Positions 17,667-61,758 of a stretch of DNA of 64,000 nucleotides are shown here, in pieces. This DNA is from TPA_inf: Saccharomyces (Eukaryota): NCBI GenBank assembly GCA_000146045.2, contig BK006938.2, forward strand, positions 1,184,001-1,248,000, read 5' to 3'. The notes below the pieces were generated by a model, which saw nothing but the letters and a program-made list of their open reading frames with translations, made no database searches and was not told where the DNA came from. The stretch's first letter is position 1. Each line of letters opens with the position of its first letter. The translations under genes were made by a program, and so were the position numbers.

Positions 17667-17749
17667 GTTTAATACATGATGATGCATCTTGATATTGAGA
17701 AATTATATGTATTATCCCTTTTTAACCTTTAAAAGGTCACAAATAAATA

Positions 17750-17822
17750 GCCTTGTTGGCGCAATCGGTAGCGCGTATGACTCTTAATCATAAGGTTAGG
17801 GGTTCGAGCCCCCTACAGGGCT
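17750..17822 (+). tRNA. tK(CUU): tRNA-Lys (anticodon CUU), intronless, 73 nt
   Basis: GCCTTGTTGGCGCAATCGGTAGCGCGTATGACTCTTAATCATAAGGTTAGGGGTTCGAGCCCCCTACAGGGCT. The acceptor stem pairs correctly, the anticodon loop is CT-CTT-AA, the A box is at 17757-17768 and the B box GGTTCGAGCCC is at 17801-17811. Confidence 0.95.
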
Positions 17823-17847
17823 AATAACACATTCAAAATGTTATAAA

Positions 17848-55959: not shown

Positions 55960-56676
55960 TTACTTCTTTAACTCGCTTAGGATTTTTTTTATTTTTTCTC
56001 TCTTTTCCGGAGAATTGCCAAATGTTTTCACGGCCTCTTCCAATAATAGCTTCATTTCTTCCAACGCAACTACTAGTTTCCCATTGTAAGTGGCGAAGTA
56101 CTCGCTGATATCATCATCTTCAGAAGCTTCTTTAATGGAAGTTGTTAAAGAATTTATAGAATTTGTTTGGCTCAGAATATCTGATAATTTACTTTCGCCT
56201 ATTTGGAGAGCCTGACATTTCAGTATTAAATCTTTCCTTAAATTACTATACTCGCTTAGAACTTTGAGATCATTTTCCACTTCAACTTCCTCTTCGTCTG
56301 CTACTTCCATCTGCGGCAGCTTCAACACATCTTCAATTAATCTCTCTATCGATGTACTCTGAGGTTCACCCTCAACTCTATTTCTTAGTTCACTTCCAAG
56401 AGAGTACTTTGGTATGTCTCCAACAAGTTCCATTATCTGCTGCGATTGACTGGCTCTCAATTCAGACTCGTTATCGTATATCTCTTTGCTCAGTAAGTCT
56501 TGTTTTCCCCTGCTCATGGCATCCTTTCTCTTTTCAATTACTTGAGCCTTTAGTAATCTGCACACTTCATTTGGTAATTCGCCTGCTAGGTCATCCATGA
56601 GGTAGTCATCACTCGACAGCAGTGCGGTCAATTCATTTTCTATAAAATTGGATATGCTATTATATGTGTCTGTCAT
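55960..56676 (-). CDS. NKP1: Non-essential kinetochore protein, 238 aa from MTDTYNSISNF
   Basis: The track ORF is 252 aa. The known product begins at the Met 14 codons in. Confidence 0.78.
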   Translation of the reverse strand: MTDTYNSISNFIENELTALLSSDDYLMDDLAGELPNEVCRLLKAQVIEKRKDAMSRGKQDLLSKEIYDNESELRASQSQQIMELVGDIPKYSLGSELRNRVEGEPQSTSIERLIEDVLKLPQMEVADEEEVEVENDLKVLSEYSNLRKDLILKCQALQIGESKLSDILSQTNSINSLTTSIKEASEDDDISEYFATYNGKLVVALEEMKLLLEEAVKTFGNSPEKREKIKKILSELKK

Positions 56677-57203
56677 CTTATTCCTACAATCTATTGTTGC
56701 TTTAGTTTCTGTGCACATTTACCAAAAATATTTCTTCGCATGTAGATTTACCTCTTTTCCCCTGTGACGCGTCATCGTTTTTATATCACCTTTGAACAAA
56801 GCAATATATCTGTACTCAAAAGGTACAAACGAAAGTTTTGTTCACGAGAAAGAGATATTTTACATGCGAATTAAATCTTGATTGCCTGAATTCTTCACTA
56901 TTTTATGATTTTTCCCTTCCTTCTTGAAATTTGATTTATATTTAGTCCAAATATTACAGAAAAAAAAAAAAAAGATGCCTAAGCCTTGGGTCTTATTTCG
57001 AACAAATCCATCCATCGGTAACAATTCAAAAAAAGAATATTTCGTCTCGAACAATTTGCTAAGTATTGTGGGTAAATGATATATAAATTTTTATAAAAAC
57101 TCTTGGCCAAGAAAAAAAAAAAAGACTATGTCTAAACGTAACGTTATCATTATTATTAAATCATTTTAATGTTTTATAAGTTTTGTTTTTCATTTCATAC
57201 CCT

Positions 57204-58031
57204 TTAAGGAGCATTTGGCATTGTGTGCGCCCTGAAGGCTAAATAAGAATTTGAAGGACTCACCACAGAACAGTATAGCGAATACCAACCGCAGCAACTA
57301 CTTAAAATTCCAAAATAGCCACCGGCCATTTTGAGATTGTTGTTGTCAATGAAGGTGCCGATACACAGTAGTAGGAAGGTAAGATCCAAAAACGTCAATA
57401 GTAAGAACAAACCCCACGTGCTCTTCAATGTACACATCAACATCAAGAAGGTGAAAACGGTCCAGCCCGCAAGGAAGAACCCAATGACATTGTTCAACAT
57501 TGTGGGATCGGTATAGCCGCTGACCAAATTATCAGTATCTGTTAGCCCATAACCGTAGCAGATCCAGAACCCGCCGAAAGAACTGAACACAGTCATGGCG
57601 TATGTGTCCCCAATGACAAAACACAATAACCCGGCAAACAATTCAATGGCACCACCAAAAAACATAAACAAACTTAGCGCCCATTTACCATCAGTGACGC
57701 CGCGAACGTTCGCATTAATTAGCGACAGAACTAGACATGACAGAGAAAACGATGCGAGACCCAAAGGAACCGGATTAGCGAACTGGTGCGGAGTATACTT
57801 TGCACAGTTTCCTTCCTCCCCATCCCCTCTGTCTAGTGCATTGAGCAAATCTCTGCGCCTGTAGGTGGAGGATCCTAGAGTAATGAAGTCTCTGTCGGAG
57901 TATATCTCTTGAATATTAGGGAAGCCCTGCGAAACGCCTGCAATCGAACCCTGCTGGGGGAGCGTCTCAATATTTTCTAGAGTGTTCACACCCTTTTCCA
58001 AATCCTGTGGAGAAGAAGCAGACGATGTCAT
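57204..58031 (-). CDS. ATO3: Plasma membrane ammonia/acetate transporter family (GPR1/FUN34/YaaH), 275 aa
   Basis: 275-aa ORF with 6 TM segments and the NPAPLGL-like family signature (ANPVPLGLASF). Confidence 0.9.
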   Translation of the reverse strand: MTSSASSPQDLEKGVNTLENIETLPQQGSIAGVSQGFPNIQEIYSDRDFITLGSSTYRRRDLLNALDRGDGEEGNCAKYTPHQFANPVPLGLASFSLSCLVLSLINANVRGVTDGKWALSLFMFFGGAIELFAGLLCFVIGDTYAMTVFSSFGGFWICYGYGLTDTDNLVSGYTDPTMLNNVIGFFLAGWTVFTFLMLMCTLKSTWGLFLLLTFLDLTFLLLCIGTFIDNNNLKMAGGYFGILSSCCGWYSLYCSVVSPSNSYLAFRAHTMPNAP

Positions 58032-58197
58032 TTTAACCAGTATTTTTATTTTTTATTCTTACTAAATCTTTCTGGGAATGTATTCAGTTATATGTGACCC
58101 AACTGTTTATAAAACTGGGGGAATATTAGGCAATCAAGCGAAGCTCATCGATGAGTATTCAATTTGCTAAAAAGTTGTTTTATTTAAATATTCCTTC

Positions 58198-58204
58198 TGA
58201 GTCA
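58198..58204. promoter_or_regulatory. Palindromic Gcn4/AP-1 site TGAGTCA about 170 bp upstream of ATO3 ATG
   Basis: Exact TGAGTCA at cttcTGAGTCAcgg. Confidence 0.5.
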
Positions 58205-58544
58205 CGGTCATCGTGAATAGCGTTAAAATTCTCAAATCCATTGGTGTTTCCATTAGGCCCTGAGCGGTTCCCCAAGAAAAAAAAAAACAGTAGAAAAAAA
58301 TGATGCTTCTTCCTAACGCTATTGTAGTGCAGGTTCTGCCGTGTGCCAAGTTGGAGCAGCGCCTGCTGAGACTCTTCCGTATGGTTCTTGCTCTTCTCAG
58401 GACCAGCGGCGGCAGTTCCGGTTTTTTTCGGCGTCTTTTGTCTGGCACACAATGGGCGATGGAGAGGGAAAACCGGAGGATATGCCAGCTGCGGTGAGAT
58501 TATGGTTGGAGTTATGTTTGTAGCCGGCGGTGCGGCAATAGGAG

Positions 58545-58565
58545 AGGGGAGGGGAAGGGGAGGGG
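58545..58565. promoter_or_regulatory. Cluster of four AGGGG (STRE, Msn2/4) motifs forming a perfect G4 motif GGGGAGGGGAAGGGGAGGGG, within a GC-rich island (58300-58600)
   Basis: The sequence ggagaggggaggggaaggggaggggaaaag lies about 520 bp upstream of ATO3 and about 670 bp upstream of EFT2. Confidence 0.5.
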
Positions 58566-59229
58566 AAAAGGTAATGGCTGACGAAGTATAGAGATGGCAA
58601 TCACAAGCCAAATATTGGAGATTACATGCAAGAATGCTACTGTTATACAAAAGGGTGAAAATTGAGACCCAAATTCCTTCCTTTTTTTTCTTTTTTTTTT
58701 ACCAGAAGAATTACGTACAAAAGTACCTACTATTTCAAAGCAAGAAATGAGATGCCTATTGTGGTTATATACAGAATAGATGATAAATGGGTTTTCCGTG
58801 CAAAACGATATGGAGAATTCAAAATGGGTGCGAAATACCTGGAACGTAAGCGTTCTGAGAAATACACAGACGCATTAACCTGACAAAAACACAACTAGTT
58901 TGGGAAAGGGATTTGGTCTTTCCTCTCGGGTCTCTCGTGTGGTTCCTTTCTTTCTCAGATCTCCCTGCACACTGGGCTGTTGTCCTCCAGGTTATGGTTT
59001 GTTCTCTTCAGGTATTACAATGCAGTAGGCTTTTGGAGTGAGCAAAACGAAGAGAGAAAAAAATTTTTTCTTAAAAGTTTTTTTTCATTTTGTGAGCTTA
59101 TTCTTCTTTTCTATATATTCTTGATATCTTAGATTATACATATTATTCTCTTACATTTCACGATTGCCCTTTTGGTGTTTAGCATTCAGACTCAAAGACC
59201 ACAAACACAAACTATAACATAATTGCAAG

Positions 59230-61758
59230 ATGGTTGCTTTCACTGTTGACCAAATGCGTTCTTTAATGGACAAAGTTACCAATGTGCGTAACATGTCCGT
59301 TATTGCTCACGTCGATCATGGTAAGTCCACTTTGACCGATTCCTTGGTCCAAAGAGCCGGTATTATTTCCGCTGCTAAGGCTGGTGAAGCTCGTTTCACC
59401 GATACCAGAAAGGATGAACAAGAAAGAGGTATCACTATCAAGTCTACCGCTATTTCTCTATACTCTGAAATGTCTGACGAAGATGTCAAGGAAATCAAGC
59501 AAAAGACCGACGGTAACTCCTTCTTGATCAACTTGATCGACTCTCCAGGTCACGTTGACTTCTCCTCTGAAGTTACTGCCGCTTTACGTGTCACTGACGG
59601 TGCTTTGGTTGTCGTCGACACCATTGAAGGTGTCTGTGTCCAAACCGAAACTGTTTTGAGACAAGCTTTGGGTGAGAGAATCAAGCCTGTTGTTGTTATC
59701 AACAAGGTCGACAGAGCTTTGTTGGAATTGCAAGTTTCTAAGGAAGATTTATACCAAACCTTTGCCAGAACTGTTGAATCCGTTAACGTCATCGTTTCCA
59801 CCTACGCCGATGAAGTTTTGGGTGATGTCCAAGTTTACCCAGCCAGAGGTACCGTTGCCTTCGGTTCCGGTTTGCACGGTTGGGCTTTCACTATCCGTCA
59901 ATTCGCCACCAGATATGCTAAGAAATTCGGTGTCGACAAGGCCAAGATGATGGACAGATTATGGGGTGACTCTTTCTTCAACCCAAAGACCAAGAAGTGG
60001 ACCAACAAGGACACTGATGCTGAAGGTAAGCCATTGGAAAGAGCTTTCAACATGTTCATCTTGGACCCAATCTTCAGATTATTCACTGCTATCATGAACT
60101 TCAAGAAAGATGAAATTCCAGTTTTGCTAGAAAAGTTGGAAATTGTCTTGAAGGGTGACGAAAAGGACTTGGAAGGTAAGGCCTTGTTGAAGGTTGTTAT
60201 GAGAAAGTTCTTGCCAGCTGCCGATGCCTTATTGGAAATGATTGTCTTGCACTTGCCATCTCCAGTCACTGCTCAAGCCTACAGAGCTGAACAATTATAC
60301 GAAGGTCCAGCTGACGATGCCAACTGTATTGCTATCAAGAACTGTGATCCAAAGGCTGATTTGATGTTGTACGTCTCCAAGATGGTGCCAACCTCTGATA
60401 AGGGTAGATTCTACGCCTTCGGTAGAGTTTTTGCCGGTACTGTTAAGTCCGGTCAAAAGGTCAGAATCCAAGGTCCAAACTACGTTCCAGGTAAGAAGGA
60501 CGATTTGTTCATCAAGGCCATTCAAAGAGTTGTTTTGATGATGGGTAGATTTGTCGAACCAATCGATGACTGTCCAGCCGGTAACATTATCGGTTTAGTC
60601 GGTATCGATCAATTCTTGTTGAAGACTGGTACTTTGACCACCAGTGAAACTGCTCACAACATGAAGGTCATGAAATTCTCTGTCTCTCCAGTTGTGCAAG
60701 TCGCTGTCGAAGTCAAGAACGCTAACGACTTACCAAAATTGGTCGAAGGTTTGAAGAGATTGTCCAAGTCTGATCCATGTGTCTTGACCTATATGTCTGA
60801 ATCCGGTGAACATATCGTTGCTGGTACCGGTGAATTGCATTTGGAAATTTGTTTGCAAGATTTGGAACACGACCACGCTGGTGTTCCATTGAAGATCTCC
60901 CCACCAGTTGTCGCTTACAGAGAAACTGTTGAAAGTGAATCTTCTCAAACTGCTTTGTCCAAGTCTCCAAACAAGCATAACAGAATCTACTTGAAGGCTG
61001 AACCAATTGACGAAGAAGTCTCTTTGGCTATTGAAAACGGTATCATCAACCCAAGAGATGATTTCAAGGCCAGAGCTAGAATCATGGCTGACGACTACGG
61101 TTGGGATGTCACCGATGCCAGAAAGATCTGGTGTTTCGGTCCAGACGGTAACGGTCCAAACTTGGTTATTGACCAAACTAAGGCTGTCCAATACTTGCAC
61201 GAAATCAAGGATTCCGTTGTTGCTGCTTTCCAATGGGCTACCAAGGAAGGTCCAATTTTCGGTGAAGAAATGAGATCTGTCAGAGTTAACATTTTGGATG
61301 TTACTTTACATGCCGATGCTATCCACAGAGGTGGTGGTCAAATCATCCCAACCATGAGAAGAGCTACTTACGCTGGTTTCTTGTTGGCTGATCCAAAGAT
61401 CCAAGAACCAGTTTTCTTGGTCGAAATTCAATGTCCAGAACAAGCCGTCGGTGGTATCTACTCCGTCTTAAACAAGAAGAGAGGTCAAGTCGTTTCTGAA
61501 GAACAAAGACCAGGTACTCCATTGTTTACCGTCAAGGCCTACTTGCCAGTTAACGAATCTTTCGGTTTCACTGGTGAATTGAGACAAGCTACTGGTGGTC
61601 AAGCTTTCCCACAAATGGTTTTCGACCATTGGTCCACTTTAGGTTCTGACCCATTGGACCCAACCTCTAAGGCTGGTGAAATTGTTCTTGCTGCTCGTAA
61701 GAGACACGGTATGAAGGAAGAAGTTCCAGGCTGGCAAGAATATTACGACAAATTGTAA
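59230..61758 (+). CDS. EFT2: Translation elongation factor 2, 842 aa
   Basis: G-domain motifs ([21 protein letters not shown]) and the diphthamide-region [10 protein letters not shown] are present. Codon bias is extreme. The chrIV paralog of this gene is EFT2. Confidence 0.93.

Follow-up and report, generated by a model that had tools for sequence, protein, structure and literature searches.

A G-rich sequence from chromosome IV of Saccharomyces cerevisiae has served as a model G-quadruplex (G4) since 2010, when it was listed as scer_chr04:1242533-1242553 (W strand) in Dataset S1 and in the conserved subset S2 of Capra 2010 (PMC2908698) and shown by circular dichroism (CD) to form a parallel G4 (PMC2908698; restated in PMC9794070). 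It was later cloned with its native flanks as 'G4-1' by Brush 2022 (PMC9794070), where it is described, citing Capra 2010, as an evolutionarily conserved sequence of chromosome IV origin. The name G4(B) stands for a chromosome IV sequence which folds into a G4 in vitro, has been identified as a site of Pif1 binding and causes instability without Pif1; it blocks Pol delta in vitro, a block relieved by Pif1, and in pif1Δ cells forks move 1.5-fold slower through an ectopically inserted copy on the lagging strand (Dahan 2018, PMC6294490). Slower forks through G4(B) in pif1Δ cells were also observed in the assay of Varon 2023 (PMC10899776). The replication effects of G4(B) were all measured on ectopic insertions. 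The present analysis concerns the native place of this sequence, in a stretch of 64,000 nucleotides (contig BK006938.2, positions 1,184,001 to 1,248,000; hereafter the window, whose own numbering is used throughout), where it lies at the edge of a GC-rich island between the divergent genes ATO3 and EFT2. We conclude that this island is very probably the distal half of a conserved, non-coding upstream control region of ATO3 of about 400 bp.

The G-tract array, GGGGAGGGGAAGGGGAGGGG (58546-58565, + strand), consists of four runs of four G separated by loops of 1, 2 and 1 nt and is a compact intramolecular G4 motif that also contains four AGGGG cores. It is located upstream of both genes, 515-534 bp from the ATG of ATO3 and 665 bp from that of EFT2, and is the sole G4 motif on either strand of the window, whether loops of up to 7 or up to 25 nt are allowed, which agrees with the report that the longest G4-free stretch of the yeast genome ends at chrIV:1242537 (Capra 2010, PMC2908698). 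Four tracts of four G with loops of at most 2 nt appeared in none of 150 first-order Markov simulations of 64 kb and in none of 20,000 simulations at the composition of the island; the looser motif (tracts of three G, loops of at most 7 nt) was found in 5% of those of 64 kb and in 7% of those of the island. A four-layer quadruplex is predicted for the array by ViennaRNA with G-quadruplex energies. The 38 bp at 58537-58574 are identical to the endogenous bases of the cloned 'G4-1' insert (Brush 2022, PMC9794070), and a full-text search for the 20-mer found it to be identical to 'G4B'/'G4(B)' of Varon 2023 (PMC10899776). Across six S. cerevisiae sequences (the window and five other strains) the array is the same save for one G-to-A change at 58565. 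The GGGA ending of that one strain corresponds to the G4A1G4A2G4A1G3 version which, according to Brush 2022 (PMC9794070), was used for CD in Capra 2010.

An earlier note on this DNA had described a textbook G4 motif at this position, with four tracts of four G and loops of 1-2 nt, and the description is fully borne out, the published CD being that of a parallel G4. The same note held that motifs of such quality are rare in S. cerevisiae; in the part of Capra Dataset S1 that covers chromosomes I-XII, 5 of about 410 listed motifs span 22 bp or less, and the array spans 20, so the statement on rarity is a fair one. Its suggestion that the motif could affect replication or depend on Pif1 had already been published for the exact sequence as G4(B) (PMC6294490). 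It treated the motif as one still to be tested, with CD of the oligonucleotide and pif1 data among the proposed checks, but the sequence has been in use as a model since 2010. The G-run is a natural G-quadruplex, which as a single strand folds in vitro into the parallel form, and the observation is real and not new. In sequence nothing distinguishes the array from the chromosome IV G4 of Capra 2010, 'G4-1' and 'G4(B)'; the published accounts, however, handle it as an isolated oligonucleotide or an ectopic insert, and do not discuss its place at the edge of a conserved ATO3 region.

The control of ATO3 itself has been described from several sides. In adr1Δ cells its expression is reduced to 11% and in cat8Δ cells to 6.4% of wild type (PMC2175534), it belongs to a cluster of Adr1/Oaf1/Oaf3 targets defined by chromatin immunoprecipitation and is negatively regulated by Oaf1 (PMC1911199), and it is listed as Cat8-controlled and glucose-repressed, still strongly so in strains lacking protein kinase A (PKA), including tpk1 tpk2 tpk3 msn2 msn4 (PMC3166949). 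According to papers citing Guaragnella & Butow 2003, ATO3 is also under control of Gcn4 and of the Ssy1-Ptr3-Ssy5 (SPS) sensor of external amino acids. The effectors of this sensor, Stp1 and Stp2, recognise sites with a near-constant CGGC core (PMC10055992), and the upstream activating sequence UASaa consists of two inverted CGGC with 6 nt between them (PMC7947893).

The GC content of 58290-58600 is 0.527, and the 300 bp at 58305-58604 reach 0.543, which is the maximum for 300 bp in the window (mean 0.373; second 0.507), with a GC skew of up to +0.48 within the island. The windowed calculation, which had been set beforehand as a test that could refute the earlier note, therefore upholds its claim of a markedly GC-rich region, and both of the GC-rich runs that it quoted are present, cagcggcggcagttccgg at 58404-58421 and gtagccggcggtgcggc at 58520-58536. 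The core of the island (58300-58545, GC 0.54) is conserved, non-coding and rich in CGG/CGGC and TTGGAG motifs; these 246 bp hold 7 copies of CGGC/GCCG, or about 28 per kb, where the whole window has 2.6 per kb (P=0.008 relative to composition shuffles).

Conservation was computed from an alignment of the ATO3-EFT2 intergenic regions of five species, S. cerevisiae, S. paradoxus, S. kudriavzevii, S. uvarum and S. eubayanus. The conserved block upstream of ATO3 (58150-58560, about 400 bp) runs from a TATA-like element through a Gcn4 site, an A-tract and the GC island to the first G tract, and the columns without change among the five species make up 61% of it, compared with 39% in the rest of the intergenic region, 35% at third codon positions of ATO3, 10-40% in neighbouring intergenic DNA and 71% in the ATO3 coding sequence. 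Within S. cerevisiae, the window differs from the five other strains at few promoter positions (TA versus CG at 58168-58169, T versus A at 58241, and the length of the A-tract at 58277-58278). In the island core, 145 of 246 columns (59%) are invariant, and the GC content of these is 0.607, as compared to 0.436 for the variable columns and 0.356 for the background; the GC excess is therefore concentrated on constrained positions. We propose that the GC richness of the island results from a dense packing of GC-rich recognition sequences, kept by purifying selection in an otherwise AT-rich neutral background.

GC richness might instead have arisen as a side effect of GC-biased gene conversion, at a recombination hotspot in the promoter, with no sequence-specific function. 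Such an origin would fit the elevated GC of the variable island columns, and G4 motifs do associate with double-strand-break sites (Capra 2010, PMC2908698). Biased conversion, however, lifts GC without freezing the sequence, whereas more than half of the island columns are frozen and GC is highest exactly there, and in three other genera with the same gene order there is no island. This explanation is accordingly regarded as very improbable.

The island also contains stop-free stretches in several frames, and six mechanically called open reading frames (ORFs) of 60-156 aa overlap it (93, 156 and 67 aa on the - strand; 65, 60 and 67 aa on the + strand), all six of the ORFs on both strands that the earlier note had mentioned being recovered. 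A small protein encoded by one of them, or a structured non-coding RNA, would account for conservation at the level of a protein-coding gene, and all five species have an ATG at about 58303. The 65-aa ORF (58300-58497, + strand), which is the sole ATG-initiated ORF of at least 60 aa in the island, is moreover found in a protein collection; the exact look-up, however, returned only unnamed automatic calls on short contigs, and its reading frame is not conserved. Most indels in the island are not multiples of three, orthologous island ORFs share short peptides before the frame changes, and S. uvarum is without any ORF there. Because the reading frames are not kept between species the island is not coding, as the earlier note had supposed for these ORFs. 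Nor was a sign of structured RNA obtained: the minimum free energy z-scores of -0.37 (+ strand) and +0.15 (- strand) hold no signal beyond composition, folding of the five-species alignment (+ strand) gave a covariation term of -1.96 kcal/mol with no structured-RNA signal, an Rfam scan of 56500-60000 returned three sub-threshold chance matches with none in the island, and a tRNA scan over the 64 kb had no hit in its vicinity. Taken together, a coding or RNA function of the island appears most improbable.

The sites that can be recognised in the conserved block are instead those expected of an upstream control region. Outward from ATO3 the proposed order would be a TATA-like element, the Gcn4 site TGAGTCAC, poly(dA), Adr1-type TTGGRG, CGG/CGGC clusters, TGCCAAG and, at the far edge, the G-tract array. 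Through the Gcn4 site the gene may receive an input from amino-acid starvation, through sites for effectors of the SPS sensor one from external amino acids, and through sites for Adr1, Cat8 and Oaf1 one from glucose derepression and non-fermentable carbon sources. The conserved TTGGRG, CGG/CGGC and GAGTCA sites are therefore natural candidates for the known Adr1, Cat8, SPS and Gcn4 inputs, although we infer the pairing of each site with its factor from the sequence. The block, the island core, the Gcn4 site and the two CGGC features discussed below are given without a strand.

Nearest to the gene is the invariant TTTAAATAT (58183-58191, - strand; ATATTTAAA in the direction of ATO3), which at 152-160 bp upstream of the ATG is a candidate for the TATA element of ATO3. 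The Gcn4 site TGAGTCAC (58198-58205) contains the palindromic TGAGTCA (58198-58204) and overlaps GTCAC, the core of the Rtg1/3 R-box. The core GAGTCA is present in all five species and the full TGAGTCA in three of them, with GAGTCAC (58199-58205) as an invariant block, so that the site conforms to a Gcn4 response element, for which TGASTCA, or at least its core TGACTC, is the consensus. This is in line with the amino-acid control through TGAGTCA that the earlier note had put forward, and Gcn4 control of ATO3 is published, as related in the citing papers.

Between the proximal promoter and the island lies a conserved poly(dA) tract (58276-58290, + strand) in which AAAAAAAA is invariant, and GTTCCCCAA together with the A-tract forms an invariant block (58267-58285) that contains TTGGGG on the - strand. 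This Adr1-type TTGGGG (58270-58275, - strand) is one of three sites that match the Adr1 UAS1 half-site TTGGRG, the others being the half-site TTGGAG at 58351-58356 (+ strand) and a further TTGGAG at 58506-58511 (+ strand), and each of the three is invariant in all five species. ATO3 belongs experimentally to the gene set of the Adr1/Cat8 co-regulated, glucose-repressed promoters (ADH2 with its UAS1/UAS2, ADY2, ACS1), and the three invariant sites are consistent with that membership. In ADH2 the Adr1 half-sites are arranged as an inverted pair. No inverted TTGGRG pair of this type was found in the region, the two + strand sites being 155 bp apart, and the block also differs from the ADH2-type promoters in having no such pair at the usual spacing and no perfect carbon source-responsive element (CSRE).

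The longest invariant block of the intergenic region, GTGCCAAGTTGGAGCA (58343-58358, + strand), joins TGCCAAG (58344-58350) to the TTGGAG at 58351-58356, and with the invariant TTCTGCCG it extends over 58334-58358. TGCCAAG is a perfect and invariant match, at the level of sequence, to the Rim101/PacC consensus (PMC5349140). In the searched literature no link of Rim101 to ATO3 expression was found. Within the same block CCAAGTTGG is nearly palindromic. Over the 64 kb TGCCAAG occurs 13 times, against 6.9 +/- 2.4 expected, a number that was not attained in any of 100 shuffles; the over-representation is mild, and many of the copies are in coding sequence.

A second cluster of CGGC/CGG triplets, CAGCGGCGGCAGTTCCGGTTTTTTTCGGC (58404-58432), has CGGC at 58407-58413 in all five species, and is followed by the invariant blocks ACACAATGGG, AAACCGGAGG and GTTGGAGT and then by GCCG-N6-CGGC (58523-58536), which lies inside AGCCGGCGGTGCGGCAAT (58522-58539) and of which both the halves and the spacing are invariant in the five species. 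It ends 9 bp before the G4 (58537-58545 lying between). Zinc-cluster factors (Cat8, Oaf1) and Stp1/Stp2 bind to triplet clusters of this type, GCCG-N6-CGGC included, and may do so here. GCCG-N6-CGGC is the best candidate for an SPS/Stp1-2 (UASaa-like) site, judged by its sequence. The block resembles the UASaa of the SPS-regulated genes AGP1, BAP2 and BAP3 in having CGGC cores and one pair with 6-nt spacing, in a gene reported by the citing papers to be SPS-regulated, and it resembles the Stp1/2 site of ENA1 in that the candidate site adjoins a G-rich element of the C2H2 type. It may differ from UASaa in the orientation of the pair, which is GCCG-N6-CGGC and is known here from sequence. A Ume6 URS1 core (GGCGGC) was considered and rejected, as it is present only in S. 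cerevisiae and S. paradoxus. The site list of the earlier note thus needs to be extended: the G4, the STRE cores (AGGGG stress-response elements) and the Gcn4 site are all present, but the conserved Adr1 (TTGGRG) and CGGC/CGG-type sites behind the GC richness had been missed.

Several points weigh against reading the island as part of such a control region. TTGGRG and TGCCAAG are common in the window, with 66 and 13 copies, and it is the invariance alone which distinguishes the copies in the ATO3 block; each putative assignment of a site to a factor in the block rests on a short consensus. GCCG-N6-CGGC may run opposite in orientation to the published UASaa, and no exact Cat8/Sip4 CSRE (CCRTYSRNCCG) was found in 58140-58600. 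No exact consensus match in the island was obtained for Leu3, Hap1, Mig1, Abf1, Reb1, Rap1, Cbf1 or Crz1. As the variable columns of the island are, at 0.436, still above the background GC of 0.356, constraint on binding sites may not explain the whole of the GC excess. The assignment of the region to ATO3 and not to EFT2, finally, would depend on distance (300-535 versus 665-900 bp) and on a comparison with EFT1. Nevertheless, with regard to the control region as a whole, our data are best described by an ordinary but unusually dense and well-conserved ATO3 upstream control region with a known G4.

The role of the G-tract array at its edge can be read in more than one way. Its AGGGG cores start at 58545, 58550, 58556 and 58561, in agreement with the earlier note, which had placed four stress-response elements (STREs) inside the G4 array, and they conform to the STRE core. 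The array could then be mainly a set of four STREs, bound by Msn2/Msn4 and driving ATO3 in stress and in stationary phase. Four cores within 21 bp make up the densest cluster in the 64 kb, where elsewhere there are never more than 2 cores per 100 bp; the number in S. cerevisiae exceeds the expectation from composition (P=0.002), and at least two cores are kept in every species. The layout is comparable to that of the STRE clusters of Msn2/4-dependent stress genes, in which several AGGGG cores stand upstream of the regulated gene. In contrast to those clusters, the ATO3 cores are all on one strand, overlap a G4 and are not conserved in position, and no Msn2/4 dependence of ATO3 was found in the searched literature, nor any report of Msn2/4 binding there. 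The core number varies (4, 3, 3, 2 and 3 in the five species) and is not above chance in S. uvarum (P=0.45) and S. eubayanus (P=0.53), and individual positions are kept in 2-4 of the five species. The listing of ATO3 among genes that remain strongly glucose-repressed in PKA-null strains, including the strain that also lacks Msn2 and Msn4 (PMC3166949), is indirect evidence that Msn2/4 are dispensable for its derepressed expression. In addition, the same core is recognised by other C2H2 factors, and Nrg1-type CCCTC matches as well. The induction of ATO3 by stress through these STREs that the earlier note had envisaged is therefore not supported, given the partial conservation of the positions and the persistence of glucose repression without Msn2/4, and we consider a primarily Msn2/4-bound array possible but rather unlikely.

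Alternatively, the quadruplex itself may be what is selected: a G4 folded in vivo might exclude nucleosomes, recruit G4-binding proteins, or activate or insulate the divergent promoters, with no part played by duplex sites. A G4-capable array is found at the same place in all five species, always with no fewer than four runs of at least three G and loops of at most 7 nt, despite array sequences and lengths that differ from species to species (that of S. eubayanus is the longest, with 11 runs of at least three G), and G4 potential is thus kept at the orthologous position in the manner of the conserved motifs of Capra 2010, which include this one and are associated with promoters (PMC2908698). 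When the G-rich segment of each species was shuffled, a G4 arose in 18-63% of the trials, corresponding to a joint probability of roughly 0.01 for three independent lineages; the retention of the G4 in all lineages is therefore mildly above what G-richness would give. The poor conservation of individual AGGGG positions points the same way, as does a 2023 paper that reports higher transcription from a minimal yeast promoter with a G4-prone sequence placed upstream of it. On the other hand, a protein-binding array of repeated (A)GGG(G) units would have the same layout and cannot be separated from a G4 by the shuffle test, and what has been published on effects in vivo was obtained with ectopic insertions and pif1Δ cells, not at the native duplex locus. 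Selection on the structure itself accordingly seems to us unlikely.

The array shares several features with mammalian promoter G4s such as that of MYC, being compact, short-looped, of the parallel type, confined to one strand, situated upstream of the transcription start and overlapping zinc-finger sites. For the array at ATO3, in distinction from these cases, no evidence of control of ATO3 or EFT2 by the structure was found. A design that would separate G4 structure from zinc-finger binding is to place two of its four AGGGG units on the opposite strand, with, as the converse, GGGTGGGTGGGTGGG in place of the array, which is a G4 without AGGGG. Just downstream of the array (alignment columns ~640-690), the single AATGGCTGA of S. 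cerevisiae corresponds in S. uvarum and S. eubayanus to GGCTAGTGGCT units in tandem (in S. uvarum GGCTAGTGGCTAGTGGCTAGTGGCTGAGG). The GTGGCTG in these tandem units resembles the Crz1 core, also known as the calcineurin-dependent response element (CDRE) core.

Outside of the genus the picture is different. Naumovozyma dairenensis, K. africana and Nakaseomyces bracarensis keep the divergent ATO3-EFT gene order and have neither a GC island nor a G4 there, and in L. thermotolerans, which was searched for the origin of the island, the neighbouring genes at the locus differ. The island, and with it the control element, is specific to the genus Saccharomyces, in which it arose and has been kept throughout. 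In K. africana, although it lacks the GC island, TGCCAAG and GAGTCAC occur within ~12 bp of each other, 141-158 bp upstream of the ATO3 ATG, and the two motifs may predate the island.

ATO3 (57204-58031, - strand) is a 275-aa ORF with a 100% match to the cluster named ATO3 S288C, and EFT2 (59230-61758, + strand) is the 842-aa ORF of elongation factor 2 (EF-2); the two genes are divergent and the GC-rich patch sits between them, 300-535 bp away from the start codon of ATO3 and 665-900 bp away from that of EFT2. EFT1 codes for the same protein as the EF-2 gene of the window, and it has upstream of it only 267 bp of AT-rich DNA with no island, and alignment of the EFT1 and EFT2 upstream regions gave no meaningful similarity. 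An EF-2 gene therefore does not need the island. This comparison, the match of the sites to the regulators of ATO3, and the distances together favour ATO3 as the target gene, and we infer that the island serves ATO3 and not EFT2. The 267 bp (2234-2500 of the locus sequence) separate EFT1 from an upstream PX-domain gene (VPS17-like).

Nearer to EFT2 there is a second group of invariant blocks (58840-58874 and 59112-59125), TGGAACG, TACACAGACGCA and TATATATTCTTGAT, which presumably are EFT2 promoter and TATA elements. They are set apart from the ATO3 block by poorly conserved DNA with a long T-tract at ~58683-58701. A weak Rfam match to U1 snRNA inside the EFT2 coding sequence (59382-59556, - strand; 20.4 bits as against a gathering score of 69.5, E=0.03) is almost certainly due to chance. 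The only tRNA gene of the window is a tRNA-Lys (CTT) at 17749-17823 (+ strand).

These results add little to existing knowledge as far as the parts are concerned, since the G4 is among the best-characterised natural quadruplexes of yeast and Gcn4, the SPS sensor, Adr1 and Cat8 are already published as its main regulators in the case of ATO3. What is added is the native context, in which the model G4 stands at the distal edge of a genus-specific control region of 400 bp, with a candidate Stp1/2 site 9 bp before it. Two small leads also follow, namely the invariant TGCCAAG with its Rim101 consensus, and the question of what retains the array, its structure or the binding of proteins. In colonies, ATO3 is induced during the alkali, ammonia-producing phase. 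It is tempting to speculate, although we hold this to be doubtful, that the region contains two further inputs, one for pH through a Rim101 site fused to an Adr1 half-site (58343-58358) and one in the form of a G-tract array retained for its structure. If this is true, ambient pH would be linked directly to a gene that is switched on in that colony phase, and the G-tract array would be a natural, genus-wide conserved, structure-dependent promoter element of yeast, at a site that also needs Pif1 for its replication.

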